Below, piece by piece: positions 1 through 40,476 of a stretch of 41,069 nucleotides of DNA. Position 1 is the first letter of the stretch. Every line of letters starts with the position of its first letter. The stretch covers positions 16,150 to 57,218 of the forward strand of contig MFAE01000008.1 in NCBI GenBank assembly GCA_001774495.1. Reading direction: 5' to 3'. The position numbers and the translations under genes are program-made. This DNA comes from Candidatus Campbellbacteria bacterium RIFOXYC2_FULL_35_25 (GTDB lineage: Bacteria; Patescibacteriota; Minisyncoccia; Phycocordibacterales; UBA12079). The notes beneath the pieces were generated by a model. It ran no database searches, was not told where the DNA came from, and saw only the letters and a list, made by a program, of their open reading frames with translations.

Positions 1-61
1 TGAATCGCCTTTTAAGTTCCTTAAAAGCCATTCGAAGCTTCAACGCTTCTCATCTCCACAG

Positions 62-77
62 ACTGAGCTACGAGCGG
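62..77 (-). pseudogene. 5' end of a tRNA-like gene (acceptor strand plus D-stem), interrupted by hairpin sequence that runs off the window start
   Basis: Minus strand reads CCGCTCG-TA-GCTC-AGT (tRNA positions 1-16 pattern), then diverges into TGTGGAGATGAG and hairpins. It lies about 60 nt downstream of a good promoter. Anticodon not visible. Confidence 0.45.
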
Positions 78-136
78 ATATTTTATTTAATTTTCAATAC
101 CGGCTAACCTATAGACGGATGAAATCAATGTAAAAG

Positions 137-165
137 ACTATACCAAAAAATAGAAAAAAGTCCAA
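137..165 (-). promoter_or_regulatory. sigma70-type promoter TTGGAC-N17-TATAGT with extended -10 TG
   Basis: Reverse complement of 137-165; points toward the tRNA-like 5' end at 77. Confidence 0.55.
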
Positions 166-170
166 CAAAT

Positions 171-209
171 CTACTCACTACAAACTACAAACTATCAACT
201 ATCAACTAT
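171..209. repeat. Degenerate heptamer tandem repeat (CTACTCA/CTACAAA/CTATCAA)
   Basis: ctactcactacaaactacaaactatcaactatcaactat, overlapping the DoxX stop. Confidence 0.85.
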
Positions 210-610
210 AAAGGTAAATCAAAAGCAAAAATTCCTGGCCCAGAGAAAATAAGGGATAAAAATACTACAAAAAATAAAACATAAAAATCTAGGCTATTGG
301 GGAGAGCTTTTGGTACTTTTATTTTTATAAAAATAGAAATGAGCATTATTATTGAAGCAATTATTGATGCTATTTGAGTTAGAAATCCCACCGTAATCAT
401 CGTTCCGGTAATAATTTCTGTTGAGGCCACTAGCCATAAAAAGATAATAGCTGGCTTTAATCCAATAATATTAAAAAAATTCATTTTACTTTCTCTGTCT
501 TTGGTTAGTTTTAACCATCCAAAATAGAAAAAAATTAAACCAACGGTTATTCGTAGAATCGTAGGGGCTAGTAGCCCGAAGGTTAATAATGCTGGGAATG
601 TAGATAACAT
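206..610 (-). CDS. DoxX family membrane protein
   Basis: Four hydrophobic segments; LRITVGLIFFYFGWLKL, TEIITG, GPGIFAFD motifs. Start moved to ATG 610 (TATACT 7 nt upstream). Confidence 0.8.
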   Translation of the reverse strand: MLSTFPALLTFGLLAPTILRITVGLIFFYFGWLKLTKDRESKMNFFNIIGLKPAIIFLWLVASTEIITGTMITVGFLTQIASIIASIIMLISIFIKIKVPKALPNSLDFYVLFFVVFLSLIFSGPGIFAFDLPL

Positions 611-625
611 ATATAAATAAGTATA

Positions 626-700
626 TGGTATCAAGTATCAAGTATCAAGCCTGCCCGTCAATTGCCTGACGGCTCAAGCCGGATGGTAGGCAGGTATCAA
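626..700. repeat. AAGTATC heptamer array containing a 45-bp CCTGCC...GGCAGG palindromic insert (650-694)
   Basis: ggtatc aagtatc aagtatc aag[cctgcccgtcaattgcctgacggctcaagccggatggtaggcagg]tatcaag. Confidence 0.8.
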
Positions 701-710
701 GTGCTAATTT

Positions 711-752
711 AAAATAAAAAGATGGCGTAGCGCGAGATATCCGCGCTACGCC
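711..752 (-). terminator. Intrinsic terminator of 771..1253
   Basis: 11-bp stem GGCGTAGCGCG/CGCGCTACGCC followed by a T-rich tract on the minus strand. Confidence 0.8.
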
Positions 753-770
753 TCATTGTTCAAGAACCGG

Positions 771-1253
771 TTAGGGGTAAATTCTTCTTCTCCCCGCCAG
801 TCTTTTTTTCTGCCTTAATTTGATGATATCAATCACTTGTTCTGCTGTTTTTTCTAGCGGAACATCGACTCCTCCATCCATTAAGACGTCAATTTGTTCC
901 GCGTAGTTTTGGTCAGGGTTGATAACCGCACGGATACTTACTTCGATGCTGTCAAAGATTATCCTTGCACTAGCCCCTGTGGAAGAATACAAAGGCGTTC
1001 CCATCAATGTAAAAATTTCAATCACTGTTGAATCGACCCCGAGCATTCTGGCAATAAGTTGTTGAAGTTCCTTTGCTAGAGTAGTTTTGGGCCTCCTTGG
1101 GTCCCATGGCTGTCGGCACCTTATGTCGATTTCTCTTCCTGAAAAATGCTCTGTGCATTTAGTGCATTCTCCAAAAACCTGAACCCCCATAGTCCGATCA
1201 TTGTATAGAGGCCCTCTTCTGAAGTCTTTTAGCCCGTTTGTTCTTCTTCCCAT
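771..1253 (-). CDS. Hypothetical protein (160 aa), GC-richer orphan with SD
   Basis: Intact ORF; GGAGG 6 nt before ATG; own promoter and terminator. Confidence 0.75.
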   Translation of the reverse strand: MGRRTNGLKDFRRGPLYNDRTMGVQVFGECTKCTEHFSGREIDIRCRQPWDPRRPKTTLAKELQQLIARMLGVDSTVIEIFTLMGTPLYSSTGASARIIFDSIEVSIRAVINPDQNYAEQIDVLMDGGVDVPLEKTAEQVIDIIKLRQKKRLAGRRRIYP

Positions 1254-1259
1254 CGTTAT

Positions 1260-1937: not shown

Positions 1938-3686
1938 ATGCGAATAGACAAAAAAAAGCTCGAAGAATTTATTAAAGACTCAGGTCTTGTTTCTAAATCT
2001 GATTTAGAAATGGCAATAGTAGAGGCAGAAAAAAGTGATTCCGATGTTGCTAATATTTTGGTTGGGATGGGGAAGCTCACCGAAGATGAAGTAAGAAGGA
2101 TTAAAGCCTATATTTTAGGGATTCCTTTTATAAATCTCGTTGGGAAAAAAATTGATTTTGATGTTTTGTCTATTATTCCAGAGCCTATTGCGAGAAACCA
2201 TAATATTATTGCATTTAAGAAAACAGACACAGAACTTGAAGTTGCTATGTTGAATGTAGACGACTTGGAAGCAATAAACTTTATAAAAAAGAAAGTAGAC
2301 CTAAAGATTCTCCCTCGTTTAACTGGAGAAGACTCCATCAAGAACACACTCCTTCAATATCAAAAAACTTTGAAGGCAGAGTTCGGTGACATAATTCAAA
2401 AACAATCTCAATCACTTGAAACCATTCCGGTGGAGAATATGGACAATATCTCTAAAGAAGATTTAAAAAAAATAGCAGAAGATTTGCCTGTTATTCGTAT
2501 AGTAGATACATTATTAAAACACGCGATAATACAAGACGCTTCAGATATTCATATTGAACCAATGGAGGACAAACTTCTCGTCCGCTATAGAATAGATGGA
2601 ATGCTTCACGACGCCATGATTTTACCAAAAAATGCGGCAGCTAGTATCACTGCGAGAATAAAGGTTTTGTCCAACCTAAAACTTGATGAAAAGAGGTTGC
2701 CCCAGGACGGCCGTTTTAAGGTAAAAGCAGAAGACCAAGAAGTTTCTTTTAGAGTTTCTATTCTTCCTGTTTATCACGGTGAGAAAGCCGTTTTGAGACT
2801 TTTGAAGGAAAGCGTTTCGGGCCTTACCCTAGAAGTTCTTGGTTTCCATGGCGATGGTTTGGAGAGAATTTATTCTGCTATGAAACGAAAAACTGGTATG
2901 ATTTTAACAACTGGTCCGACTGGGTCAGGTAAAACTACCACTCTTTATACACTTTTAGATAACTTGAATGAACCCAGTGTAAATATTTCTACAATAGAAG
3001 ACCCGATAGAATATCAAATGCCCAGAATAAATCAAACTCAAGTTAAGCCAGATATTGGTTTTACTTTTTCAAGCGGATTAAGGTCCCTTGTTCGTCAGGA
3101 CCCCGATATTATCATGGTGGGTGAGATTAGAGATAATGAAACTGCCTCTTTGGCAGTCAATGCAGCCCTAACAGGACACTTAGTTTTATCGACACTCCAC
3201 ACAAACTCAGCCGCAGGAGCGATGCCTAGATTTATTGATATGAAAATAGACCCGTTTTTACTCGTGTCGACTTTGGGGGTAATTATTGGGCAGAGACTTG
3301 TTCGTCGCTTGAATGATGATGGGGAAAAATATTTCTTATCGAAATCAGAAATTACTTCTCTGGGCAAGCTTGTTGATTTGGACAGGATGTTATTTTTTTT
3401 GAGGAAAGAAAAAATTATTGGGCAAACTGAGACTTGGGCCAATATCCCTTTTTATAAACCAAAAGTAAAAGAAGGTTCCGATGGATATGCAGGAAGAGTT
3501 GGTATTCATGAGATTTTGCCGGTTTCTAGCACGATAAAAGATTTGATCATTAAAAATGCGACATCAGAGAAGATAGAGGAACAAGCGAAAGACGAAGGGA
3601 TGATGACGATGATTGAAGATGGTATTTTTAAAGCTAGTCAGGGGATTACGACTATTGAGGAAGTTTTGCGAGTTATTTCCGAGTAA
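1938..3686 (+). CDS. pilB: Type IV pilus assembly ATPase, GspE/PilB family
   Basis: ASDIHIEP, RYRIDG, PQDGR, Walker A GPTGSGKTT, EDPIEY, RQDPDIIMVGEIRD, TGHLVLSTLH. Confidence 0.93.
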   Translation: MRIDKKKLEEFIKDSGLVSKSDLEMAIVEAEKSDSDVANILVGMGKLTEDEVRRIKAYILGIPFINLVGKKIDFDVLSIIPEPIARNHNIIAFKKTDTELEVAMLNVDDLEAINFIKKKVDLKILPRLTGEDSIKNTLLQYQKTLKAEFGDIIQKQSQSLETIPVENMDNISKEDLKKIAEDLPVIRIVDTLLKHAIIQDASDIHIEPMEDKLLVRYRIDGMLHDAMILPKNAAASITARIKVLSNLKLDEKRLPQDGRFKVKAEDQEVSFRVSILPVYHGEKAVLRLLKESVSGLTLEVLGFHGDGLERIYSAMKRKTGMILTTGPTGSGKTTTLYTLLDNLNEPSVNISTIEDPIEYQMPRINQTQVKPDIGFTFSSGLRSLVRQDPDIIMVGEIRDNETASLAVNAALTGHLVLSTLHTNSAAGAMPRFIDMKIDPFLLVSTLGVIIGQRLVRRLNDDGEKYFLSKSEITSLGKLVDLDRMLFFLRKEKIIGQTETWANIPFYKPKVKEGSDGYAGRVGIHEILPVSSTIKDLIIKNATSEKIEEQAKDEGMMTMIEDGIFKASQGITTIEEVLRVISE

Positions 3687-3810
3687 ATAATTTCAAAATA
3701 GGATTAAATTATTTTAAAGCGATGGAAAAATATAAATACAAAGAAACTAAAAACAAAATAAAACAAAAAAAGGCTGTCCGACAGCCTAATTTTTTGTTGT
3801 GAATTTTTTT

Positions 3811-3840
3811 CTACTCACTACCAACTACAAACTACTCACT
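3811..3840. repeat. Heptamer repeat (CTACTCA family) upstream of pilC
   Basis: ctactcactaccaactacaaactactcact. Confidence 0.8.
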
Positions 3841-3894
3841 AAACCAATCTATTCACTTTTAACTTTATGCTTTCTACCTTATACTTATGAATAT

Positions 3895-5106
3895 ATGCCC
3901 GTATTTAAATATAAAGCAATAAAAGAAACAGGGGAGGTTTACAATAGCTCAACCGGTGCAAAAGACGAGGAGGAGCTGAAAAAGATAATAAGAGATCAAG
4001 GAGGGTCACTTATTAGTTGTGAGAAGGGGATGGGAGGATGGGGTTCCCTTAAAAATATTTCTTTTGGGGGTTCTGTAAAAATGCAGGACAAAATTATATT
4101 TGCGAAAAATTTAGCGGCTATGATTAGTGCGGGGCTTTCTGTTTCAAAATCATTAACTACTTTAGAAAAACAATTTAAAAATCCATTATTTAAAAAAGTC
4201 ATAGGCGAGATAAATGTAAAGATTAAAGGGGGGCAAACTATAGGTGCTTCAATGAAAGATCATCCAAAAGTTTTTTCTCCACTATTTGTTTCTATGGTAA
4301 GGGCGGGAGAGGAAAGCGGAAATATTTCAAATTCTTTAATGATTGTTTGCGAACAAATGGAAAATTCTTATGCTTTAAAAAAAAGAGTGAAGGGGGCATT
4401 AATTTATCCAACAATAATCTTCATTGTTATGATGATTATTGGAGTGTTGATGCTTATTTTTATAGTACCAACTCTTCAGGCTACTTTTGCTGATTTAGGG
4501 ACCGATTTACCGTTTAGTACTCAGATTATAATTTCTACTAGTGATCTTTTAAAGAATCATTCGATTCTTTTTATTGCTATTGTTTTTGCTATTGTTTTTC
4601 TTATTATTCTTGCTTTTAAAACCAAAAAAGGTCAGAGAATTATTGATATCATATCTTTGAAAACTCCCATGATTTCTTCTATTACCAAAGAGATAAATTC
4701 TGCTTATACCGCGAGGACATTATCTTCCCTTCTTTCTTCGGGGGTTGATGTTTTAAGTGCTTTTGAGATTACTGAAGATGTTTTGCAGAATTCATTTTAT
4801 AAAGAGGTTCTCGGAAAAGCGAGGGAGGGAATTCAAAAAGGAGATCCTGTGGCGGATGTTTTTCTTAAGAATGAAGACTTGTTTCCTCCGATTGTTAGTG
4901 CCATGGTTGAGGTTGGAGAAGAAACTGGAAAATTACCAACCATGCTTCTAAGTGTGGCAGATTTTTACGAAAAAGAAGTTGCCCAAAAAACAAAAAACAT
5001 GTCAGTAATCATTGAACCTGTTTTAATGGTGTTTATTGGTTTGGCTGTTGGCTTTTTTGCGGTTTCTATGATTACCCCAATGTATTCGGTAATGGCGAAT
5101 ATATAA
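3895..5106 (+). CDS. pilC: Type IV pilus platform protein, GspF/PilC family
   Basis: MPVFKYKA start, AGEESG, ALIYP, GEETGKL, IEP motifs; two T2SSF repeats with TM segments. Confidence 0.93.
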   Translation: MPVFKYKAIKETGEVYNSSTGAKDEEELKKIIRDQGGSLISCEKGMGGWGSLKNISFGGSVKMQDKIIFAKNLAAMISAGLSVSKSLTTLEKQFKNPLFKKVIGEINVKIKGGQTIGASMKDHPKVFSPLFVSMVRAGEESGNISNSLMIVCEQMENSYALKKRVKGALIYPTIIFIVMMIIGVLMLIFIVPTLQATFADLGTDLPFSTQIIISTSDLLKNHSILFIAIVFAIVFLIILAFKTKKGQRIIDIISLKTPMISSITKEINSAYTARTLSSLLSSGVDVLSAFEITEDVLQNSFYKEVLGKAREGIQKGDPVADVFLKNEDLFPPIVSAMVEVGEETGKLPTMLLSVADFYEKEVAQKTKNMSVIIEPVLMVFIGLAVGFFAVSMITPMYSVMANI

Positions 5107-5112
5107 TTTAGG

Positions 5113-5216
5113 ACAAAGAAACAAAGAAACAAAGAAACAAAGAAACAAAGAAACAAAGAAACAAAAAAACAAAGAAACAAAGAAACAAAGAAACAAAGAA
5201 ACAAAGAAACAAAAAA
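5113..5216. repeat. Octamer tandem repeat (ACAAAGAA)6 ACAAAAAA (ACAAAGAA)5 ACAAAAAA, 13 units
   Basis: Counted directly; fills the pilC-pilin intergenic region. Confidence 0.97.
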
Positions 5217-5227
5217 TAATAAATATT

Positions 5228-5725
5228 ATGATGAGAAAAAACTTAAATCTACTCACTACTCACTACTCACTACAAACTAAATCCGGATTTAGCTTGTTAG
5301 AAATGTTGTTTGTGATTGGAATTATGGCAATTCTTTTTTTGATAGGAACAAAAATTTTTTCAAATTCGAGTCCAAAGTATAAAGTTGATAATGCCGTCGT
5401 TATTGTTTTAAATTTATTAAATGAAGCAAAATCAATGACATCCTCGGCTGTAGGTTCTTCTCAGTATGGAGTTCATTTTGAAACAACAACCCTAACCCTA
5501 TTTAAGGGAGAAACTTTTTCTGCAGTTGATCCAAATAACAGAGAAATAATTTTAAATGAAAATGTTAATCTTTCAAATATAAGCCTTGCTGGAGGAGGGG
5601 CTGATGTCGTCTTCAATAAATTAATAGGGACAACTGATCATCATGGGACGGTAACTATTTCTCTCGTCTCTGATTTATCTGTGAATGAAATAGTTACAAT
5701 TTTATCAACAGGAATCTCTTACTAA
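5228..5725 (+). CDS. Minor type IV pilin (prepilin N-methylation domain)
   Basis: Class III signal G|FSLLEMLFVIGIMAIL. Confidence 0.88.
   Translation: MMRKNLNLLTTHYSLQTKSGFSLLEMLFVIGIMAILFLIGTKIFSNSSPKYKVDNAVVIVLNLLNEAKSMTSSAVGSSQYGVHFETTTLTLFKGETFSAVDPNNREIILNENVNLSNISLAGGGADVVFNKLIGTTDHHGTVTISLVSDLSVNEIVTILSTGISY
5249..5278. repeat. (CTACTCA)3-CTACAAA-CT heptamer repeat inside the prepilin leader coding region
   Basis: Encodes LLTTHYSLQT upstream of the G|F cleavage site. Confidence 0.85.
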
Positions 5726-5728
5726 ATC

Positions 5729-6211
5729 ATGCTTAAAAATATAGATAAAACAAAAGGTTCAGGATTTGTAGAGTTGATAATCGGCTTATCAATAATTTTT
5801 GTGGCCCTCACTTCCGTTGTTTCTTCTTATAATTTTTTCTTTAAGGTTGCTAAAAATAACACGAAAGTAATAAAAGCTGAGTTTTTGTTAGAAGAGGGGG
5901 TTGAGGTTTTAAAATTTGTAAGAGATTCTGATTGGACTAATATCTCAAGTCTTTCCTCTGGTTCTGATTATTATTTGTCGTTTGACGGCAGTCTCTGGAG
6001 TGTTTCAAACACTAATGTTTACATTGACGATACTTATGAGAGAAAGTTTGTCATTTCTGATGTCTATCGAGATGTTGATGATAATATTGCCGGTATGGGG
6101 GCTCTCGATATAGGGACAAAGGATATCGAGGTTTTTGTTTCTTGGTTGAGTTCAGGGGCCACATCGACGAGATCAATCAATATAATTTTAACGGATTTAT
6201 TCAGTGAATAA
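5729..6211 (+). CDS. Minor type IV pilin (PilV-like), atypical KG|SGFVE cleavage site
   Basis: Basic leader, E at +5, hydrophobic helix; position in the operon. Confidence 0.8.
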   Translation: MLKNIDKTKGSGFVELIIGLSIIFVALTSVVSSYNFFFKVAKNNTKVIKAEFLLEEGVEVLKFVRDSDWTNISSLSSGSDYYLSFDGSLWSVSNTNVYIDDTYERKFVISDVYRDVDDNIAGMGALDIGTKDIEVFVSWLSSGATSTRSINIILTDLFSE

Positions 6212-6213
6212 AT

Positions 6214-6723
6214 ATGTCATATAAAAAAGGATTTTCATTAATAGAGGTTTTGGTTTATATAGCGGTTATGGTTATCGTTCTGCTTATTGTTGTTAATACC
6301 GCGTTACTCATGACTAAAGCTTATCAGGAAATGAGGTTGTCAGTAAACATGAATAATTCCGCCGTAAGTATTTTAGAAAGAATGAGTCGTGAGGCGCGGT
6401 GGTCTTCTAGTGTTAATACCACGGATAGTATTTTGAATAATAATTCTGGCCTCTTAGTTTTGAATAGAATTGATGAGTCGGAAGTGACAACTGAAATTAG
6501 GTTTTATATTGAAAATGGTAGTTTGGTGATAAAAGAAGGGTTGTCTGATGCTGTGGCTTTGAACGCGCCAGGTAAGGTTTTTGTTGATAAATTTTTTGTA
6601 ACAAGGATTGATAGCGGGATATCAGAAATGGTAAAGATTGAAATTGAATTAAGAGGGATGTTGAAGGACAGAATAAAAATGGAAACATTCTATGACTCGA
6701 TTATTTTAAGAGAGTCCTATTGA
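6214..6723 (+). CDS. Minor type IV pilin (PilW-like)
   Basis: KKG|FSLIEVLVYIAVM. Confidence 0.88.
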   Translation: MSYKKGFSLIEVLVYIAVMVIVLLIVVNTALLMTKAYQEMRLSVNMNNSAVSILERMSREARWSSSVNTTDSILNNNSGLLVLNRIDESEVTTEIRFYIENGSLVIKEGLSDAVALNAPGKVFVDKFFVTRIDSGISEMVKIEIELRGMLKDRIKMETFYDSIILRESY

Positions 6724-6729
6724 ATGTTG

Positions 6730-6758
6730 GTGAGTAGTTTGTAGTGAGTCGTGAGTAG
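6730..6758. repeat. Heptamer repeat in reverse orientation (GTGAGTA family)
   Basis: gtgagtagtttgtagtgagtcgtgagtag, approximately the reverse complement of 5249-5278. Confidence 0.8.
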
Positions 6759-6794
6759 AAAAAGTTTAAAAATTATTAAATTAAAGAAAAAGAT

Positions 6795-6848
6795 ATGAAA
6801 GTTATTTTATTATAAGATGTTCCAAAGATCGGTAAAAAGTTAAAAGTA
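6795..6848 (+). pseudogene. rplI: 5' remnant of ribosomal protein bL9 gene with an in-frame stop
   Basis: Translates MKVILL*DVPKIGKKLKV, matching the bL9 N-terminus pattern MKVILLxDVxxxGKK; not in the ORF track. Confidence 0.6.
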
Positions 6849-6885
6849 GGAATGAAAATGAATTTTCGCGAAGCAAAAATTCATT

Positions 6886-6915
6886 CTACTCACTACTCAC
6901 CACAAACTACAAACT
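6886..6915. repeat. Heptamer repeat (CTACTCA family) upstream of the PilX-like gene
   Basis: ctactcactactcaccacaaactacaaact. Confidence 0.8.
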
Positions 6916-6923
6916 AAAACATT

Positions 6924-30082: not shown

Positions 30083-30140
30083 TTGCGCAGAGATTTAGGG
30101 TTTGTTATTCTTTATTAATTTCTTATTGAAGGAGATCGGT

Positions 30141-30545: not shown

Positions 30546-30664
30546 ATGATAAGCTCTTTATTTAAAAAAAGCCCCACGGTTTCATCGCCATGGGGTTTTT
30601 CTTTTTTTTAAAAAAATTAAAGTTTTCTTTATTTGTCTATTGGCTTTGTGTATAATAGTTTTAT

Positions 30665-32575: not shown

Positions 32576-32595
32576 GAGGCATCTTATTTCTTCGG
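32564..32595 (+). terminator. Hairpin formed from the last ftsH codons and their inverted copy
   Basis: ccgaagaaataag-aggcat-cttatttcttcgg (13-bp perfect stem). Confidence 0.65.
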
Positions 32596-32759
32596 AATTT
32601 CTAATTTCTAATTTCTAAAAAAATTCAATAATACTAAAATACCAAAATTTTCGCGGTCGCGAAAATTTTGGTATCCTTGAATTTTTTTATTCAGGATTCA
32701 TAATTCTTTATTCATAATTCCATTTAATTCTGATAGAATTAAATATAAGGTATCAAATT

Positions 32760-33206
32760 ATGAAAAAAAGACTAATACTTATTTTAATTGTAACGGCACT
32801 GATTGTTTGGGATCAAGCCTATATTCCTGATAATTTAGGTTCTTTCCAAAAACAAGCAGAGGAGATTTATAAAGATAGAGTATTGCCAACAAAAAAATTT
32901 ACAACGGACGGTTGTTCAATGTGGCCGAACTCAACGGCTGGTTATTCTTGGGAAGAATTATGTATAGAACATGACATTGCTTATTGGATGGGAGGGACAG
33001 AACAAGAAAGACTTGAGGCTGACCAAAAATTCAGAGATGGCGTAAATAAAATTTCACCATTTGTTGGAGACGTTATGTATTATGCTGTTCGTTTGGGTGG
33101 AAATAAATGGGTCCCAGCTCCTTGGCGTTGGGGTTATGGCTGGGCTTATCCTTACGACGAACAAGAGGTAATTGTTTGGGATGAATTGCATAATAATAAG
33201 CTCTAA
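32760..33206 (+). CDS. Exported protein with a prokaryotic phospholipase A2-like motif
   Basis: Signal/TM anchor; TDGCS, CIEHDIAY (His-Asp), ERLEADQKF. Confidence 0.6.
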   Translation: MKKRLILILIVTALIVWDQAYIPDNLGSFQKQAEEIYKDRVLPTKKFTTDGCSMWPNSTAGYSWEELCIEHDIAYWMGGTEQERLEADQKFRDGVNKISPFVGDVMYYAVRLGGNKWVPAPWRWGYGWAYPYDEQEVIVWDELHNNKL

Positions 33207-33318
33207 TTATTTTTAATGAAAAAGTTAGTTGGGTTGATTAAATAATGATTTTTAGGTAAAGTTTGATATACTTTTAGTTGTTTGGTCGTATTTATACATA
33301 AATTTTTGAAAATTTTGT

Positions 33319-33391
33319 GCGCGTGTAGCTCAGTTGGTAGAGCGCAGAGCTTATACCTCTGTGGTCCCAGGTTCGAGTCCTGGCGCGCGCA
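33319..33391 (+). tRNA. tRNA-Ile(UAU)
   Basis: GCGCGTG/CGCGCGC acceptor, GCTC/GAGC D-stem, CAGAG-CT[TAT]AC-CTCTG anticodon arm, CCAGG-TTCGAGT-CCTGG T-arm; 73 nt; CCA not encoded. Confidence 0.93.
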
Positions 33392-33404
33392 CAAAGTTTT
33401 TAAA

Positions 33405-33709
33405 ATGTGTGGTAGCTCAGTTGGACAAAAAGCAAATTTCTTTGCTTTTTGTCCGGTTTTTGTTGAAAGCAAAAAATTTTCGTTATCGAGCGAAGCGAGA
33501 TAGGAAATAGGAGGAAGAGTGCAGAGCTTATAATTTCAAGCGAGGACGACATAAAAATAAATAAAATAATTTTTTTGTTATTTTATTTATTTTTGTATTG
33601 TCCGAGTGATGGAATTATATCGAAGATATATCTCTGTGGTTTGCCGTTGCTTTAAATTGTTTTTAAATTAAAACAATTTAAAGAGGTTCGAGTCCTGGCG
33701 CGCGCACCA
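33405..33709 (+). pseudogene. Second tRNA-Ile(UAU) copy split by three hairpin insertions
   Basis: Segments tagctcagttgg (to 33424), gagtgcagagcttata (33517-33532), ctctgtggt (33632-33640), aggttcgagtcctggcgcgcgcacca (33684-33709). Confidence 0.85.
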
Positions 33710-33817
33710 AGTTTTTAAAATTATACTTTAAGTTGTATTATTTTCTATATCATGGTTCAATTAAGTTAGAAGTATTGGGGTATTAAATAGTATTCAACCA
33801 AAAGAGGAGGATCGATT

Positions 33818-34024
33818 ATGCGACATTTTGTCAGAATCAACCCGTCTTTGGTAGAAGCTGTTATCTTACACACGCCAGGCAAAAAGAGACCCGCTGTTAT
33901 TTTTGTTGGACTCGGGACAAGGAATGATCCTGTTGAAATCATTGAAAGATACTCGTCTCAAAATGTATGTGACATTTCGGAGTTGGATGGGACCGTCCAT
34001 GTCTTCTCAACAGGAAATTGTTAA
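33818..34024 (+). CDS. Hypothetical protein (68 aa), orphan with SD
   Basis: GAGGAGG before ATG; terminator-like hairpin 34044-34078. Confidence 0.6.
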   Translation: MRHFVRINPSLVEAVILHTPGKKRPAVIFVGLGTRNDPVEIIERYSSQNVCDISELDGTVHVFSTGNC

Positions 34025-34098
34025 TGGTCCAGAACAGAGCCCACCCCTTTCTCGCGAGAGAAGGGGCATTTTTTTATTTAATTTCTTGTGATTTAGAG

Positions 34099-34124
34099 AA
34101 GGCCACCGTACGGGCGGTGGCCTT
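34099..34124. terminator. Hairpin between convergent orphan genes
   Basis: AAGGCCACCG-tacggg-CGGTGGCCTT. Confidence 0.7.
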
Positions 34125-34159
34125 GGTCCCATTTTGGGAAAATATTTTCGCAAAGATTT

Positions 34160-34357
34160 TTATTTTTTCTCTTCGCGACAAAACTCACACTCACACCCCA
34201 GGGGGTGTTCTCCTCTTCCACCGACAACTACAGCTGGGGCATTTGTTCCCTTTGAGATTCTGGTTCCTCCTGGTAATGTATGCATGTTTCCGCAGGACCT
34301 CGCTTTGTGGGAGCTGCCCCTAGCACTTCTTCCCCAACCGCCTCTGCCTTTTGCCAT
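34160..34357 (-). CDS. Small basic Gly/Arg-rich protein (65 aa) with a C-terminal CxCxxC
   Basis: AAAGGA before ATG 34357; TAGACA-N17-TATTAT promoter upstream. Confidence 0.55.
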   Translation of the reverse strand: MAKGRGGWGRSARGSSHKARSCGNMHTLPGGTRISKGTNAPAVVVGGRGEHPLGCECEFCREEKK

Positions 34358-34467
34358 GGTTTGTTTTCCTTTGTTGAGATTATTGCCGACCAACTTGTCT
34401 AAATTTCTGCGCTAAATAATATATTATTGTATAGATTCTGTCTATTTTTTGTTTCTATTTTGTATTT

Positions 34468-36609
34468 TTATTCAAAATGTACCTCAATTTTTTTTAGCTT
34501 TTCTTTTACCACTGGGTAATTTTTTAAATTAGCATCTTCTTTAATTATTTCTTGAGCTTCGGTGCGGGCGGCTTCTACCATTTTTATATTTTTTATTGCT
34601 TCCATCCCGATATCAGAAATACCCCATTGTTTTTTGCCCGACAATTCGCCTGACCCTCTGAGAAGTAAATCTTTTTCTGCTAATTCAAAACCATTTTTAG
34701 CAGACTGTAGAGCTTTTAATCTATCTAATGTTTGTTCTGCTTTTGTGTCGCTAAATACATAGCAAAAAGCTTGATGGTTACTTCGAATCACCCGACCCCT
34801 TAATTGATGGAGTTGAGCTAGCCCAAATCTTTCCGCCCCTTCAATAATTATTATTGTAGCATTGGGGACATTTACTCCAACTTCTACAACAGAGGTGGCG
34901 ACAAGAATATCGATTTCTTTATTTTCAAATTGAGACATAGTAGCTTCTTTGTCAGCTGGAGTCATCTTGCTGTGTAAGATATCAATTTCGTATTCTGGAA
35001 AAACCTCTTCCTTTAATCGTTGGGCTTCCGCTCTTACGGACTTAACTCGAAGAGCCTGAGCTTTTTCTGGGTCGGGCTCTTCTATCCTCGGGCAAATAAC
35101 ATACATTTGTCGTCCCTCTTTTAATTCTTCCCGAATAGTTTCATAAGTTTTTTCTCTCTTGGCTGGAGTAACAATTTCTGTGATAACAGACTTTCTTCCT
35201 GTTGGCATTTGGTCCAGCAAGGTTAAATCTAGGTCACCATAAATAGTCAAAGCTAATGTTCGGGGTATTGGTGTTGCTGTCATAGATAGCAGGTGGGGGA
35301 TTACTTCGCTCTTTTTTGTAATTTTCATTCTCTGGTTTGTTCCAAACTTGTGTTGCTCATCGATGATTACACAGGCGAGGTCTTTGAATACAACACCTTT
35401 TTGTATAAGAGAATGAGTCCCTATTAAGATGGGGATTTCTCCATTGGCAACCCATTTCAATAGTTGAGGGCGAGAAATACCAGTCCAGTTATTTGGGTTA
35501 GTTTTTGAGGGAAATTTTCTGCACCCACTTGAGGTTATCAATCCGATACTTATATTTTTTTCAGAAAAATATTGTATGAATGATTCAAAAAGTTGTTTAG
35601 ACAAAACTTCTGTTGGTGACATATAAGCAATTTGAAGATTTCCAAAGCTCTGTTCATTTGGCCTGGTCGTAACAACAGCATTAGAAACAGCGGCCGCCAC
35701 GGCTGTTTTTCCTGAACCAACATCACCTTCAAGTAATCGAGACATTGGATGGTTACCTCCAATATCTTTTAAGATTTGCTCGATTGATTTTTCTTGGGCC
35801 TTGGTAAGCTTGAAAGGGAAACTGTCTAATATTTTTTTAATCTCTTCTTTTGTCTTTTTTATTTTAAATGAGGGCTGTTGTTGAAATTTTTTCTTTTGAC
35901 TTTGGCGGGATAACTGAATAAAGAAAATTTCTTCGAAAGCAAATCTTTTACGAGCGGAAACAGCATCAGATTTTTTTTGCGGAGTGTGAATCCAAATCAG
36001 GGCGGTTTTCAGGGAAGGGAGGTTATATTTTTTTAAAATTTCTTGAGGGATAGGGTCAGCAATTTCATCTAAAAGGCCCGAGTTAAAAATTTTTTTGATA
36101 CTGTGGTGAATCCATTGAGAACTCACACCTCTGCTTTCTGGATAAATAGGAGAGAAAAAATGATTGTCTGATTCTTCTTTGAATATTCCCGTAGGGATAG
36201 ACTCTGTTATTTCGTATGCAGGATTGGCTAAATAGGGCTTACCTTTTCTGTCGCTGATAGTTCCGCTAAATTTAGCAAAAGTTCCTTCGGGCAACATTTT
36301 AGATATATAGGGTTGGCGAAACCAAACAGCTGGGATGGTACCCTCGCTATCTTCGAGAACCGCCTCTGTCATTGTAATCTTTTTGTAATAAGCTTTACTG
36401 GCTTTTATTTTTTTTACCTTAGCGTAGATAATGATTTTGTCTCCTATCTTTAAATCTTTTGTGTTTTTTGTTTCGTCTGTATCTCCGTGGCGAGGAGGGA
36501 AATAGTAAAGCAAATCCTCAATAGTTTTTAAACCAATTTTTTTGAGGGCTTTTTTTCGGCTATCTGCGAGGCGAGGAAAAATCTCTTCAATTTTTGAGTT
36601 TAGTTGCAT
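34468..36609 (-). CDS. recG: ATP-dependent DNA helicase RecG
   Basis: N-terminal wedge/OB region, GDVGSGKT, IIDEQH, MTATPIPRT, QLHQLRGRV. Confidence 0.96.
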   Translation of the reverse strand: MQLNSKIEEIFPRLADSRKKALKKIGLKTIEDLLYYFPPRHGDTDETKNTKDLKIGDKIIIYAKVKKIKASKAYYKKITMTEAVLEDSEGTIPAVWFRQPYISKMLPEGTFAKFSGTISDRKGKPYLANPAYEITESIPTGIFKEESDNHFFSPIYPESRGVSSQWIHHSIKKIFNSGLLDEIADPIPQEILKKYNLPSLKTALIWIHTPQKKSDAVSARKRFAFEEIFFIQLSRQSQKKKFQQQPSFKIKKTKEEIKKILDSFPFKLTKAQEKSIEQILKDIGGNHPMSRLLEGDVGSGKTAVAAAVSNAVVTTRPNEQSFGNLQIAYMSPTEVLSKQLFESFIQYFSEKNISIGLITSSGCRKFPSKTNPNNWTGISRPQLLKWVANGEIPILIGTHSLIQKGVVFKDLACVIIDEQHKFGTNQRMKITKKSEVIPHLLSMTATPIPRTLALTIYGDLDLTLLDQMPTGRKSVITEIVTPAKREKTYETIREELKEGRQMYVICPRIEEPDPEKAQALRVKSVRAEAQRLKEEVFPEYEIDILHSKMTPADKEATMSQFENKEIDILVATSVVEVGVNVPNATIIIIEGAERFGLAQLHQLRGRVIRSNHQAFCYVFSDTKAEQTLDRLKALQSAKNGFELAEKDLLLRGSGELSGKKQWGISDIGMEAIKNIKMVEAARTEAQEIIKEDANLKNYPVVKEKLKKIEVHFE

Positions 36610-36782
36610 ATAGAGAAGTATAAAGTCTCTAAAGTTGAAAGTCTATAATTTGATAAGATTAAATAAGTTTGTGTCCGAATATTCAAGTATGTTATATTAT
36701 AGAGATAATAAACAGGATGAGAAGATTTGTTGTCGGAAATTTTCTTGATGGTTTAATTTTAAAATTTAATTTACATATAAAT

Positions 36783-37463
36783 ATGCAACAAAAAACATTA
36801 ATACCAATAGTTATAGGAGTTCTTATAATTTTTGCCGGAACTTGGTTTTATTTATCTGGTGGAGATAATAAAGAGTCAAAAACCGCTTCAGATTCAATCG
36901 ATATTTTAGCTCAAGTAAATGGTGAGGAGATAAACAAAGAAGCTTTCGAGACAGCCAAGGCTCAATTTATTACCACCCAAAACATTGAAGTGGCGTCTCT
37001 TGACGAAGAAACCCTTAACCAACTAAATACACAAGTTCTTGATTCTCTTATCAATAATTCTCTAGTTCAGCAAGCTACTAAAGAAAGTAAGGTGAAGGTA
37101 TCAGATGAAGATGTCGACGCACAGATAGATCTTATAAAGAGTCAATTTGAAGATGAGGCAGCTTTTCTGAAAGTTCTTTCAGAACAAGGTATTTCAGAAA
37201 CAGAATTGCGTTCTCAGGTTGTTTTGGACATTGCCGCACAAACATATTTGGAGTCAGTACTTGATCTCGATTCAATCACCGTAACTGAAGAAGAAGTTGA
37301 TGCTTTGTATAAACAAGAAGCTTCTGTTGATAAAGATTTGCCGGCTCTTTCCGAAATCAAAGGTCAAATAGAAGCATTTATTGTTCAACAAAAACAACAA
37401 GAATTATTTTCCCTGCATATTCAAAAGTTACGAGAGGATGCTGATATAGAAATCTTAAATTAA
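36783..37463 (+). CDS. SurA N-terminal-domain chaperone, membrane anchored
   Basis: N-terminal TM; LAQVNGEEI, LDSLINNSLV.Q, VSDEDVDAQI SurA_N-type pattern. Confidence 0.8.
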   Translation: MQQKTLIPIVIGVLIIFAGTWFYLSGGDNKESKTASDSIDILAQVNGEEINKEAFETAKAQFITTQNIEVASLDEETLNQLNTQVLDSLINNSLVQQATKESKVKVSDEDVDAQIDLIKSQFEDEAAFLKVLSEQGISETELRSQVVLDIAAQTYLESVLDLDSITVTEEEVDALYKQEASVDKDLPALSEIKGQIEAFIVQQKQQELFSLHIQKLREDADIEILN

Positions 37464-37473
37464 GAAAAGATTA

Positions 37474-37509
37474 AATAAAAAATACCAACGCAAGTTGGTA
37501 TTTTTTATT
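37474..37509. terminator. Bidirectional terminator
   Basis: AATAAAAAATACCAAC-GCAA-GTTGGTATTTTTTATT. Confidence 0.8.
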
Positions 37510-38070
37510 GTGCGGAGAGGGAGGGATTTGACCTCCCAGTTCTAAGTTCGGACTTCGCCTTTCGGATTGCAAAGTTTGGAGGGATTTGGTCACAAAGTTT
37601 AGGTTTCGATGGGGAGGGATTTGACCTCCCAGTTCTAATTTCAGACTTCGCCCCTTCGGGACTCGTCTTCACTAAGAACTCGTAGGCTCGTCGCTCAAAT
37701 TTTTCTTTCGCTTCGCTACAGAAAAATATATTCGCTCTTGTTCAAATCCCTCCCTCACTTTAACAGCGACACAAAATAAAAACACTGCTTTGGCAGTGTT
37801 TTTATTTTGGTCGTGCGGAGAGATTGTCCACTTCGCTCGAACCTATTTTGAAAAGCAATCGCGAAGCGATTGAAGTTTAAATCTTACGCTCCGAGCAAAA
37901 GATAATTTCAAACCATAACTTACGCTCGACTAAATCGGAAGTTTGAAACAAACGAAACGACTTGTCGTTTCCACTTCGTTCCAACGACAACCAACTCCAA
38001 AAAAAATTCTTTTCCTTTTCTCTAAAAAATTTTGGGGGGCGAAAAAAGAAAGGAAAAAACGCAAAGAAAT

Positions 38071-38252
38071 TTTTTTGGGTTGGTTTCTGCTCATACTTCA
38101 CAGAAAGTCGTTTCTTAGTCGGATGTTTTAGATTCATTTTGTTTTCGTCGCTCGCTCTGTTGTAAAAAACACATTGCCTTTGGCAATGTGTTTTTTACAA
38201 CTCGCTCTCTCACGAAAACAAAACGAAACTAAAACGCTATTTATCTTGTGTT
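38071..38252. repeat. 182-bp direct repeat, copy 1 (nested hairpin)
   Basis: Identical to 39501-39681 except for one deleted C. Confidence 0.95.
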
Positions 38253-38378
38253 GTCTTTATTGAAATATAAAAATTTTTATTGAAAAAACAAGAAGATTAT
38301 GGAATAATAACAAAACTGAGTGGTGGTCACTCAGTAGTATTTTTTTAAAGTTCTTTTAAAACATTATGAGGTGGTAAC

Positions 38379-38954
38379 ATGCAAGTAGCTCAAGCTCAAA
38401 ATTTTGTTCCTCAAGTAAAAACCGTTCAGTTGTTTGATACCAAACAACAACCAACTCTCGGTCGAGAAATCATCCCAGCGGTTCATGGCGAGTATTATGG
38501 CTATTCTTCTGTATTTACAAGAGAAAGGCCCCTTTATGCACTAATGAAGTGTAAATCCAACAAAGATCGACCTGTAAGCGAGATTGTTGATTTAGGTTTA
38601 GAAGCTAATGCCTTCTTCCGGTTTAATGAGACGGATCAAAAGATCATCTCGATAAAAACAGCAAATAATCTCGGCTTACTACAGAGAGGAAAGACAAAAA
38701 TCGATTTTGATGACATCTGGTTCGCCCCAACTAACCTTACAGCCAAGCAATTTATGAAATTGCAGGCTAATAAAAACGAAAAAGAGTTGGTAAACTTATG
38801 CCAAAAAATACTTATCAACGGTCGTGATGCCGTTGAACTTCGCAAAGGATTGGTTGTGACGATGATGACCAGTAGTGAAAAATACGGCATGTTTTTGGTG
38901 AGCAAAATTACACCATTCTCAATTCAAATTGAGGCATGTCACATTTTGCTTTGA
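38379..38954 (+). CDS. Hypothetical protein (191 aa), cassette gene with SD
   Basis: GAGGTG before ATG; terminator ACACCACAGGA/TCCTGTGGTGT at 38976-39002. Confidence 0.75.
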   Translation: MQVAQAQNFVPQVKTVQLFDTKQQPTLGREIIPAVHGEYYGYSSVFTRERPLYALMKCKSNKDRPVSEIVDLGLEANAFFRFNETDQKIISIKTANNLGLLQRGKTKIDFDDIWFAPTNLTAKQFMKLQANKNEKELVNLCQKILINGRDAVELRKGLVVTMMTSSEKYGMFLVSKITPFSIQIEACHILL

Positions 38955-39038
38955 TACCTCAAACCTCAACCCGACACACCACAGGAACGAATCCTGTGGT
39001 GTTTTTTATTGTTTTATGTCATTATCTTTATTATCAAT

Positions 39039-39491
39039 ATGGAAATAAGAAATTATAATAAAAAAGATAAAGTTGCTGTGCAACATATTTTTGCTAAATA
39101 TTGGACAGATAGAGAATTTTTAGATGAGCTTGAGAAAAATTTGGACGGGGGCGAAGTTTATTTTTACGTTGCTGAAAAATACGACGAAATAATCGGTGTT
39201 GCAGGTTTTAGAAAAGCTCCAAAATATCTTCGTGATTATGCAGAAACAGAAAATCCTGTGGAGTTGTATATAATAGCTTCTAAAGAGAAAAACAAAGGTT
39301 TTGGAAACACTCTTGCACAAAAAATTATTGAAAAAGCAAAAAAAATGAATTTTACAGAAATAGAGTGTTATAGCCCCGAGACTCACAATAGTTCGTGGAA
39401 ATTTTATGAGAAGCTTGGATTTAAAAAGCACGGAATTATTAACGATCCAGATGATGGATACCCCGGAATGCTTTGGAGGAAAGTTTTGTAA
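39039..39491 (+). CDS. GNAT family N-acetyltransferase
   Basis: IRNY start, IIGVAG, KNKGFGNTL, KFYEKLGF. Confidence 0.88.
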   Translation: MEIRNYNKKDKVAVQHIFAKYWTDREFLDELEKNLDGGEVYFYVAEKYDEIIGVAGFRKAPKYLRDYAETENPVELYIIASKEKNKGFGNTLAQKIIEKAKKMNFTEIECYSPETHNSSWKFYEKLGFKKHGIINDPDDGYPGMLWRKVL

Positions 39492-39500
39492 GGAAAAGAA

Positions 39501-39681
39501 TTTTTTGGGTTGGTTTCTGCTCATACTTCACAGAAAGTCGTTTCTTAGTCGGATGTTTTAGATTCATTTTGTTTTCGTCGCTCGCTCTGTTGTAAAAAAC
39601 ACATTGCCTTTGGCAATGTGTTTTTTACAACTCGCTCTCTCACGAAAACAAAAGAAACTAAAACGCTATTTATCTTGTGTT
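39501..39681. repeat. 181-bp direct repeat, copy 2
   Basis: Begins 10 nt after the GNAT stop. Confidence 0.95.
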
Positions 39682-39810
39682 TGCCCCAACCCTCCCAGCG
39701 CACACAAAAAAGCTCCCAAACAGACAAAAACCACACTTCGTGTGGTTTTGTATGATAAAAGGGACAAATGGTGTATTTGTCCCTTTTAGCTTTGTGGAGA
39801 TTTGATATTT

Positions 39811-39963
39811 TTATGGTTTTTTGATGTATTTTACACCCCTACCAGCATTTCCAACTTGAATTATCTTTTGCTCTTTTTCAAGAATATTTAAGTATCTTGT
39901 TGCACTTCTTTTAGTAGTTCGTAGCAATTCTTGAACATCCGAGTTTGAAATATTTGGATTTGA
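39811..39963 (-). pseudogene. 3' fragment of a gene ending in a DeoR-like winged HTH
   Basis: SNPNISNSDVQELLRTTKRSATRYLNILEKEQKIIQVGNAGRGVKYIKKP*; no start codon; begins at TCAAATCC. Confidence 0.65.
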
Positions 39964-40140
39964 CCTCCCAGTTCTAAGTTCGGACTTCGCCCTACAGGCT
40001 CGCCCTCATTAAGAACTCGTAGGCTCGGCGTTCGTATTTTTCTTTCAGAAAAATATACTCACCCTTGTTCAAATCCCGACCTCTCTACCGTCAAGACATC
40101 AATATTCAAATACCTTAATCGGTATTTGAAATTGCTGTTG

Positions 40141-40227
40141 CGGAGAGGGAGGGATTTGAACCCTCGGAGGCTTTTACACCTCGGCACGTTAGCAGTGTGC
40201 TGGTTTAAACCACTCACCCACCTCTCC
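40141..40227 (-). tRNA. tRNA-Ser(GCU)
   Basis: GGAGAGG/CCTCTCC acceptor, CT[GCT]AA loop, long variable arm GAGG/CCTC, GAGGG-TTCAAAT-CCCTC T-arm; 87 nt; A31.C39 mismatch; CCA not encoded. Confidence 0.92.
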
Positions 40228-40252
40228 GTGTGTTCGTCAAATTATATTTTTA

Positions 40253-40476
40253 GGGAGGGATTTGGTCACAAATAATTTTTCTTTGAAAAATTTTCGCGAC
40301 CCCGACTCGTCTGTCTCGCTTCGCTCGACATAACTCCGTCCCTTGATTTCAGACAGAAAACAAAGCAGTTTGCTTTCTTTTCTGATAAATATTTTTTATA
40401 AAAGATAAAAAATATTTATCAGAACTTAAATCAAGCCTCGGCACGTTAGCAGTGTGCTGGTTTCACCCACCTCTCC
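40253..40476 (-). pseudogene. Upstream tRNA-Ser(GCU) copy with a D-loop deletion and hairpin insertions
   Basis: ggagaggtgggtga[delta gtggttta]aaccagcacactgctaacgtgccgagg retained; then inserts; aaatccctccc at 40253-40263. Confidence 0.85.

Follow-up and report, generated by a model that had tools for sequence, protein, structure and literature searches.

Introduction

The window analysed here, a 41,069-nucleotide (nt) stretch of a genome assembled for Candidatus Campbellbacteria bacterium RIFOXYC2_FULL_35_25 (contig MFAE01000008.1), carries partial copies of its own stable-RNA genes beside the intact genes, broken by hairpins and referred to below as shadow copies. Genomic islands and prophages with a tyrosine integrase target the anticodon loop or the T-loop of transfer RNA (tRNA) genes, restore the 3' part of the gene and leave a displaced 3' copy downstream. 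Rickettsia palindromic elements (RPEs) and bacterial miniature inverted-repeat transposable elements (MITEs) are short palindromic insertions that are tolerated in-frame in proteins and in RNA genes. Disrupted tRNA genes of archaea (multiple-intron, split, and permuted) are interrupted at the D-loop, the anticodon loop, and the variable or T-loop, and their introns behave as mobile elements, with the genes being functional and matured by a splicing endonuclease (PMC4390854, PMC10714607). Phage T4 SegB is a free-standing GIY-YIG homing endonuclease in a tRNA gene cluster that drives the inheritance of itself and of the neighbouring tRNA genes (PMC2330249). The Ssn family consists of single-domain GIY-YIG proteins that cut single-stranded DNA beside the NTS/SRM hairpin repeats flanking their own genes (PMC11893778).

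The pattern in the window and in related loci departs from integrase islands in lacking an integrase, in the size of the elements (150-400 nt), in the carriage of a whole tRNA, and in the 5' halves displaced upstream, the antisense arms, and the conserved folded core. Short palindromes, one of which lies in RecJ here, are shared with RPEs and MITEs, but these leave the replacement tRNA, the nesting, and the nuclease linkage unaccounted for. Unlike the archaeal disrupted genes, the interrupted copies look dead, an intact copy always adjoins them, and the organism is a bacterium, as the presence of transfer-messenger RNA (tmRNA) and SmpB implies. As with SegB, a GIY-YIG gene is found among or beside tRNA genes; however, SegB comes from a phage, has several domains, and acts in phage crosses, whereas the putative nucleases considered here have one domain and 77-95 amino acids (aa) and are encoded on bacterial chromosomes. 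Moreover, in contrast to SegB, the cassette lies inside its target gene, both halves of which are left, the replacement has the same anticodon, and the window has no nuclease gene. The likeness to Ssn extends to a small single-domain GIY-YIG protein, abundant short hairpin repeats, and a link to natural transformation, and the strand-specific hairpins described below would suit a single-strand enzyme. The Ssn size of about 90 aa in a single domain is found in the relatives, a likeness of size and domain content. However, Ssn repeats have not been reported in or beside tRNA genes, which the Ssn paper does not mention, and neither a cargo gene nor nesting has been described for Ssn (PMC11893778).

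Bacterial tRNA genes that are nested or accompanied by flank units were not described in anything that a literature search returned, and the statement in an earlier sequence-only annotation of the window (the original prediction) that no named system is known to produce the pattern agrees with this. tRNA-replacing cassettes with a mini GIY-YIG nuclease seem to be undescribed in bacteria. We propose that the shadow copies were probably, with considerable room for doubt, produced by replacement cassettes, the autonomous forms of which carry such a nuclease.

Shadow copies of the stable-RNA genes in the window

ARAGORN and Rfam identified three stable-RNA genes, all of which have partial copies beside them. 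The copies were located by short-word comparison (blastn-short) of each RNA gene with the window, by direct reading, and by pattern mapping. The intact genes, with the gene just upstream of tmRNA, are as follows.

29114-29489, minus strand: tmRNA (ARAGORN, Rfam)
29578-30024: smpB, just upstream of tmRNA (SmpB by Pfam)
33319-33392, plus strand: tRNA-Ile(UAU), intact, functional copy (ARAGORN; Rfam 72.7 bits)
40140-40227, minus strand: tRNA-Ser(GCU), intact (ARAGORN, Rfam)

The intact tRNA-Ile gene has a mutually complementary leader and trailer (ttgaaaattttgt / aaagtttttaaaat) and is followed by an older copy, lacking the first ~6 nt of the 5' acceptor strand and split by three inserts.

33408-33709, plus strand: split older tRNA-Ile copy, collinear with the gene and exact in independent assemblies
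33412-33424, plus strand: copy piece, tRNA positions 7-19
33425-33515, plus strand: insert 1, in the D-loop, with hairpins at 33425-33452 and 33457-33476 and a CGAGCGAAGCGAG mini-hairpin at 33487-33499
33516-33533, plus strand: copy piece, positions 21-38
33534-33626, plus strand: insert 2, in the anticodon loop, a GA-loop hairpin (H, 33534-33619) and a 7-nt spacer (33620-33626)
33627-33640, plus strand: copy piece, positions 34-47
33641-33683, plus strand: insert 3, a simple AT-rich hairpin that takes the place of CCC in the variable loop
33684-33709, plus strand: copy piece, positions 51-74 plus CCA

Hairpin H reads TTTCA-AGCGA-GGAC...GTCC-GAGTGA-TGGAATTATA, and in the predicted fold the anticodon stem of the split copy is still closed around insert 2. 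Insert 1 is homologous to a D-loop insert in the outermost layer of the related locus L130, and the 93-nt insert 2 to a hairpin of L130 that holds an inner tRNA at its tip, where the window hairpin is empty.

The original prediction had described this tandem copy split by three hairpins, a broken tRNA-Ser copy upstream of the gene with 3'-end copies in both orientations, and direct and inverted 3'-end copies at tmRNA. The short-word matches bear out all of this, those at tRNA-Ile being collinear over 33408-33709 and those at tmRNA being direct at 28902-28922 and inverted at 29025-29036 and 29061-29070. Its broader statement that every stable RNA has a shadow is true of the three genes in the window but not of relatives, where a minority to half of the genes have one. 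It had also named assembly artefacts as an outcome that would overturn it. Logan contigs from four sequencing runs of different samples are identical to the tRNA-Ile locus, one 429-nt contig covering 33388-33816 with 0 differences, and this exact agreement of independent assemblies rules out a chimeric origin of the shadow copies. The contigs of this locus break solely at 33487-33510; the depth there climbs from 30 to 198 (33486-33507 in run X1), which indicates a multicopy motif.

Partial copies in related loci

We compared the window with ~160 related loci (given L numbers) anchored on FtsH and RecG and containing 253 RNA genes; the nearest relatives were Campbellbacteria-like Parcubacteria. 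With exact matches of 11 nt or more taken as partial copies, 154 segments were found in 161 loci within 1.2 kb of RNA genes, compared with 8-13 for shuffled RNAs, and they occurred at 35/113 tRNA-Ile (31%), 30/59 tRNA-Ser(GCU) (51%), and 19/59 tmRNA (32%) genes. Insertion at random positions, which would have spoken against the original prediction, was not what we found, as copy boundaries in the relatives were non-random, with modes at positions 35/38 and in the T-loop. Inverted copies downstream of the genes begin in the T-loop, at +35 to +90, and direct copies that run from the T-loop through the 3' end come next, at +107 to +185. tRNA-Ile has an additional class, in which direct copies of positions 1-38 lie upstream and copies from position 35 lie downstream. 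The claim that inserts fall in loops rather than stems agrees with the window tRNA-Ile copy and with these modes, but the hairpin in the tmRNA antisense arm sits at the junction of T-stem and acceptor.

Two layouts were recognized. The first is a 3'-flank unit with three components: an antisense arm, a folded core that is conserved and strand-specific, and a copy of the RNA itself from the T-loop to the 3' end. The second is tRNA-in-tRNA nesting, in which an intact tRNA-Ile lies inside the anticodon loop of an older copy, in up to three layers. At 10/10 informative sites, the antisense arm agrees with the functional 3' end rather than with the distal copy, a count biased by ascertainment because the arm was located through its match to the functional end.

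tRNA-in-tRNA nesting and probable allele replacement

Smith-Waterman comparison of the 113 tRNA-Ile genes identified 15 with a 5' half upstream, 25 with a 3' half downstream, and 12 with both, with swapped-side controls giving 1 (the window itself) and 0. In the nested design, CTTATAA (positions 32-38) is directly followed by hairpin H with its GA-rich internal loop, and H ends in TTATA and a 7-8-nt spacer before TATAY (positions 34-38). An intact leader-tRNA-trailer unit is located at the tip of H in L026, L027, L042, L054, and L130, in the spacer after H in L018/L104, L114, and L046, and upstream of the whole split copy in the window. L042 and L130 have three layers, and nested inserts are only ~150 nt long.

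The outer 5' and 3' halves pair 7/7 in L130 and L042, by compensatory differences from the inner gene, and also 7/7 in L111 as read by eye. These sequences suggest that the outer halves were once one gene, older than and different from the inner gene. In the RecG tree, a supported clade unites the window with L002, L001, and L130, and its acceptor stems are GCGCGTG/GCGCACG; the functional gene of L130 has GGGCGTA, and its displaced halves have GCGTGTG, the clade type. L124 likewise has a foreign-type functional tRNA-Ile inside a CCGTCCT clade. Acceptor class switches 23 times on the 86-taxon tree (shuffled mean 31). Genome pairs whose RecG is 80-90% identical differ at >=3/7 acceptor positions of tRNA-Ile in 44% of cases, compared with 13% for tRNA-Ser, and the difference does not rise with divergence.

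A filled and an empty site were found at the same position. L068 and L065, with 86-89% RecG identity to L124, have a plain CCGTCCT tRNA-Ile gene. L124 retains the CCGTCCT gene from position 9 on, with a D-loop hairpin, and its 5' end is replaced by a block of ~390 nt that consists of a GIY-YIG gene and a GGGCGTG tRNA-Ile. Presence and absence at one site, with the resident allele disrupted, as expected of a SegB-like element, are thus seen between L124 and L068/L065, and the layout in the window is that of L124 minus the open reading frame (ORF). The suggestion that tRNA copies served as landing pads did not survive these observations (7/7-paired outer halves, tree-discordant inner alleles, and a filled/empty site). 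The nested tRNA-Ile copies of relatives, and the split copy of the window by its layout, look like displaced remains of earlier resident genes, as far as their sequences can tell.

The tandem layout of the window is unique among the 113 tRNA-Ile genes. Genome and metagenome scans returned no relatives above 78% FtsH or 73% RecG identity to the window, which leaves it without a strain-level filled/empty site of its own. About 440 nt downstream of tRNA-Ile, L002 has the 5' fragment of a tRNA in inverted orientation, with a hairpin in its D-loop (GTAGCTCAGTTGG-ATAAAAAGCG...); it resembles the 5' part of the split copy in the window, which indicates that a relative of the split copy is present, rearranged, in this sister genome. 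Between the tRNA-Ile locus and recG lies a pyrimidine-rich non-coding stretch of ~450 nt (34025-34470; AT skew -0.2, z about -3), which had no Rfam match and may be a decayed gene.

Single-domain GIY-YIG genes in relatives

In L124, a 79-aa ORF ending 3 nt before the foreign-type tRNA-Ile matches PF01541 (E = 5.9e-15). A tblastn search of the related loci gave 17 significant single-domain GIY-YIG mini-ORFs. For 12 of them, a called tRNA-Ile, tRNA-Ser, or tmRNA gene is no more than 190 nt away (P = 1.3e-8). Another three are situated between smpB and a tmRNA missed by ARAGORN, so that 15/17 adjoin these RNA genes. GIY-YIG nuclease genes were found at L124, L033, L030, and L073, among others in this set, and the encoded proteins are single-domain, with a length of 77-95 aa. 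NCBIfam gave nothing above its cut-offs for the mini-nucleases, and their nearest solved structures are UPF0213 proteins.

The full order of displaced 5' piece, nuclease gene, intact tRNA, and displaced 3' piece is seen in L124 and L073. The latter reads displaced 5' piece, ORF, tRNA-Ser, second ORF, core end, and displaced 3' piece, and its core end GGGGTACTG..CTGTAAG is also the closing element of protein-less units in L030 and L043. The L124 ORF has hairpins on its flanks, and the tmRNA-linked GIY-YIG ORFs have repeated modules on theirs.

The statement that no enzyme for the pattern is encoded in the window was confirmed by Pfam scans of its ORFs, which found no integrase, transposase, HUH, recombinase, or nuclease for the system, and by tblastn, which found no GIY-YIG remnants at E<=10. 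The window therefore holds at most non-autonomous derivatives. In relatives, a candidate GIY-YIG enzyme lies beside the same three RNA genes.

Two further observations concern the tmRNA-linked genes. In L065, L053, and L111, the tmRNA 5' ends (TTTAGGGGGATG...) not called by ARAGORN are visible after the GIY-YIG gene. In L047, L077, and L111, modules of the form GGCTAAA - hairpin - TTCGCCCGAACA - hairpin - TTTTA lie between smpB and tmRNA, beside the GIY-YIG gene; tandem in L047 and absent from the window, they are a 5'-side counterpart of the 3'-flank units.

Units at the tRNA-Ser and tmRNA genes

An older unit lies upstream of tRNA-Ser, preceded on its 5' side by a TATAAT box, and 3'-flank units lie behind tRNA-Ser and tmRNA.

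40252-40476, minus strand: older tRNA-Ser unit upstream of the gene
40463-40476, minus strand: upstream unit, tRNA-Ser positions 1-14
40436-40463, minus strand: upstream unit, tRNA-Ser positions 22-49
40342-40435, minus strand: upstream unit, three-way hairpin insert
40300-40341, minus strand: upstream unit, GA hairpin with CGAGCGAAGCGAG
40264-40301, minus strand: upstream unit, module B
40252-40264, minus strand: upstream unit, T-loop-to-T-stem copy
39956-40130, minus strand: tRNA-Ser 3'-flank unit C (repeat families D8, D18)
40105-40130, minus strand: unit C, trailer hairpin
40067-40085, minus strand: unit C, antisense arm, then core
39956-39969, minus strand: unit C, partial sense arm
37512-37822, minus strand: orphan array of tRNA-Ser-type units, lacking an adjacent tRNA
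37815-37822: orphan array, 8-nt tRNA 3'-end remnant
37773-37808: orphan array, terminator
37740-37756: orphan array, antisense arm
37612-37630 and 37519-37537: orphan array, sense arms
37578-37594: orphan array, module-B end piece
37512-37531: orphan array, full 20-nt 3'-end copy
29025-29124, minus strand: tmRNA 3' end, terminator palindrome, and antisense arm
28922-29024, minus strand: conserved core of the tmRNA 3'-flank unit, with an orthologous core in L002
28983-29024, minus strand: tmRNA core, hairpin 1
28922-28984, minus strand: tmRNA core, module B, GGTCGAG...hairpin with GCGAAGC tip...CGTGACC
28902-28922, minus strand: distal sense copy, tmRNA T-loop C56 to 3' end (CAATTCTCCCCATCTCCACAG)

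The whole upstream unit is collinear with a tRNA-Ser plus flank unit in L084, L080, and L019, and core B of the orphan array is 85-95% identical to that of unit C. The DNA downstream of tRNA-Ser cannot be aligned between the window and L002. At tmRNA, a repeat search showed the terminator palindrome (29062-29124) to be perfect, with 29-bp arms that include the acceptor 3' strand. The antisense arm is in two pieces (29061-29070 and 29025-29036) with an inserted hairpin (29039-29060) between them, and the distal copy differs from the functional end at 2 sites.

Metatranscriptome contigs were compared at the tmRNA and tRNA-Ser loci. On tmRNA they cover only 29116-29480, starting exactly at the mature 3' end, with a depth of 9-79, and at tRNA-Ser they consist solely of 31-mers matching 40140-40167 (plus 3 unaligned letters, possibly CCA). 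No contigs lie on the flank units of either gene, a weak negative in that the data were contigs at low coverage. The tRNA-Ile locus was present in none of the RNA runs.

Near the tRNA-Ser units, two direct repeats of 160 nt (38064-38223 and 39494-39653; 98% identical, each with a 43-nt palindrome) enclose a 1.43-kb block containing an orphan 191-aa ORF and a GNAT acetyltransferase. The block looks like a cassette or a recent duplication within a 2.6-kb segment bounded by tRNA-Ser sequence.

Structured modules and hairpin insertions

Module B has the form GGTCGNG - hairpin - YGTGACC and was found in 25 copies, of which 24 are co-oriented with the nearest RNA gene and most have a copy of that RNA, from C56 on, immediately after them. 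All share one fold, with an invariant base and with inner stems that come in 23 distinct versions, every one of them paired. Their sense strand is the more stable because of G-T wobbles, and such a strand-specific fold implies that module B acts as a single strand of tRNA polarity, whether RNA or single-stranded DNA.

The copy regions of the window fold strongly on both strands, with z = -6.5 to -12 relative to shuffles, compared with +0.4 and +0.7 for coding controls. d(GCGAAGC) is an unusually stable DNA mini-hairpin. GCGAAGC occurs 9 times in the window where 1.8 are expected, a five-fold excess that 0/100 shuffles reached, in line with the reuse of motifs among inserts that had been noted earlier. 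In RecJ, an in-frame 69-nt GA-loop palindrome (12351-12419; GGGGAGCGAAGCGGAC tip) adds ~27 residues exactly at a gap relative to solved RecJ structures (query 213/248, chain 211/219), and its position in frame at an alignment gap indicates that the hairpins behave as DNA insertions. The hairpin inserts, and these only, thus share with RPEs and MITEs the character of short palindromic multicopy insertions tolerated in coding sequence. The proposal of a non-autonomous element was also upheld, in that the inserts are structured and homologous and go with tRNA and tmRNA genes, insert 2 matching L130 and module B recurring 25 times.

Other features of the window

A permissive Rfam scan of 28800-41069 recovered the three RNA genes and chance microRNA-like hairpins, and nothing else. 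The tRNA 5' end that had been reported at 62-77 corresponds to a tRNA-like 17-nt fragment, which is present but weak, as its 10-mer match is at chance level (E = 2). It belongs to a composite truncated by the window edge.

34-77, minus strand: composite at the window edge, weak on its own
61-77, minus strand: edge composite, 17-nt tRNA-like 5' fragment CCGCTCGTAGCTCAGTC
49-60, minus strand: edge composite, 12-nt tmRNA-type antisense arm
34-49, minus strand: edge composite, hairpin

By Pfam, the window ORFs encode housekeeping genes and a competence set. The latter includes PilB (T2SSE), PilC (T2SSF), pilin-like genes, ComEC, and a ComF-like phosphoribosyltransferase (1938-8807, 17997-19532, and 40657-41067), and would matter if cassettes spread through DNA uptake. 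Intergenic spacers of the pilus operon contain an 8-nt tandem array (ACAAAGAA x ~14; 5113-5224) and CTACTCACTAC-type repeats in both orientations (160-203, 3800-3843, 5238-5281, 6875-6918, and 14205-14263). A pair of 54-nt GC-rich hairpins (24929-24982 and 25823-25876; 93% identical; AAGCCCCACGAAGTGAAGCG.GGGGCTTCTTTCGTGGG) lies around a 160-aa ORF at 25228-25710.

Proposed replacement cassettes and alternative explanations

The replacement-cassette explanation holds that small DNA cassettes repeatedly invade the stable-RNA genes of Paceibacteria (candidate phyla radiation, CPR), where each would break the resident gene and supply a replacement. This would be a complete tRNA with self-pairing leader and trailer or, in the T-loop type, a new 3' end with the folded core. 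Pieces of the previous gene would be left on either side of each invasion as shadow copies, and the dead pieces would then gather palindromic RPE-like hairpin insertions, mostly in former loops. Complete cassettes, as in the relatives, would carry a 77-95-aa single-domain GIY-YIG gene beside the cargo RNA gene. The window would hold only products without the protein, namely a new tRNA-Ile set directly against the D-arm of the old copy with its many hairpins, an older tRNA-Ser unit preceding the present gene, and the flank units that follow tRNA-Ser and tmRNA. We infer that the nuclease would cut the DNA of the resident gene in a loop region, possibly when single-stranded or extruded, that the break would be repaired from a cassette-bearing template arriving by DNA uptake, and that the cargo allele would escape cutting. 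That inner and outer alleles differ is an indirect hint that element-bearing alleles may be immune in this way. The hairpin modules, conserved and strand-specific as they are, would be cis parts of the cassettes.

Several observations weigh against this explanation. The GIY-YIG link, drawn from sequence, rests on relatives, and the window encodes no such protein. The two tRNA-Ile copies of the window are of the same allele type, which means that a local duplication may have occurred at this one locus. A plain homing model leaves the role of the antisense arm unexplained. The tRNA-Ser upstream unit is orthologous to, and ~90% identical with, its counterpart in L002 over ~190 nt, with compensatory changes, and its tRNA-derived part has each genome's own variants at 3/3 sites. 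This points to purifying selection or gene conversion acting on the unit rather than simple decay, and such conservation with in-step variants requires selection or concerted evolution. The sense strand of module B is more stable in 23/25 copies (p = 9e-10), and this and the invariant base fit a functional RNA as well. Some modules may thus be under selection.

These last points lead to the main rival, to which we give a limited but real chance, namely that the structured units serve the host as cis elements or small RNAs, for example in the processing, termination, or regulation of tRNA/tmRNA operons, with the tRNA-derived arms kept by selection as working parts. The conservation of the upstream tRNA-Ser unit between genera, with compensatory stems and a tRNA part in step with the gene, would be expected of such units, as would the TATAAT box before it. 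The same is true of module B, given its 23 distinct paired inner stems, invariant base, and G-T wobbles, a strand-specific fold of tRNA polarity, and co-orientation with the RNA gene (24/25). However, the RNA contigs end at the mature tmRNA 3' end and none lie on the tmRNA or tRNA-Ser flank units, a canonical terminator separates tmRNA from its unit, and units are present at only a third to half of orthologous genes. Nor would host function explain the onion layers, the foreign inner alleles, the filled/empty site, the nuclease genes, or the insertion of the same hairpin type inside RecJ.

It is improbable that the shadows are att-site scars of decayed tyrosine-integrase islands or prophages in the tRNA and tmRNA genes. 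A 20-nt direct repeat of the tRNA-Ser 3' end (37512-37531 and 40140-40159) does bound 2.6 kb of accessory-looking genes, and the T-loop and anticodon-loop boundaries of the copies coincide with the integrase sublocations within tRNA genes reportedly described by Williams in 2002. But the scanned window ORFs contain no Phage_integrase or recombinase family, the ~150-nt nested inserts are too small for an integrase element, and the 5' halves found upstream of 15/113 tRNA-Ile genes are not yielded by attP/attB exchange. Instead of the direct repeats of the 3' part alone, downstream, that integrase islands would leave, the loci have upstream 5' halves together with inverted antisense arms and a conserved core, which are not att features.

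Equally improbable is an origin with no dedicated element, through replication errors at structured RNA genes (fold-back priming, template switching, or quasi-palindrome correction). The perfect palindrome that takes in the tmRNA acceptor strand with its 29-bp arms, the many AT-rich perfect hairpins in former loops, and the strong folding of both strands would all suit such errors. They would not yield core motifs conserved across genera and across different RNA genes, inner alleles unlike both the outer ones and the clade type, nuclease genes at the same places, or a strand-specific fold. The original prediction had offered fold-back or template-switch duplication as one option, and taken alone it fails on the foreign inner alleles, the nuclease linkage, and the cross-genus core.

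That the split copies are spliced genes with a new kind of bacterial tRNA intron is very hard to credit: insert 2 does lie in the canonical 37/38 region, with its 3' part pairing with the anticodon, and some outer copies are otherwise intact (L018, L046), but the inserts have no Rfam intron or ribozyme match, the window copy has three inserts and no 5' acceptor strand, an intact gene always adjoins, and outer copies decay in layers. A group I intron was rejected separately, with no Rfam match (RF00028) at E<=1, an insert of 93 nt, and a copy without the 5' acceptor strand.

Returning to replacement cassettes, we tentatively extend them to a gene drive of the cleave-and-rescue kind that arose in nature and targets essential RNA genes, a doubtful proposal when its four steps are taken jointly. 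A mini GIY-YIG nuclease would recognize the folded single-stranded DNA of a tRNA or tmRNA gene and cut the D, anticodon, or T loop; the cassette encoding it would bring an uncuttable replacement allele; module B, the GA-loop hairpins, and the antisense arms would be cis signals guiding cutting or repair; and cassettes would pass between cells by DNA uptake, such that CPR bacteria would continually swap essential tRNA alleles.

Implications

For annotation, tRNA finders see the inner gene only, and the debris around it can be mistaken for introns, pseudogenes, or att sites. The very small nucleases and their matching DNA hairpins have a specificity that can be assayed, and may serve as structure-directed or single-strand-directed tools. 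The pattern also bears on the long-standing question of why archaeal tRNA genes are disrupted. If the replacement-cassette explanation is true, it would represent a new route of tRNA gene turnover, in which essential single-copy tRNA and tmRNA genes are overwritten repeatedly by selfish cassettes, and such overwriting would make acceptor stems flip between near-identical genomes.

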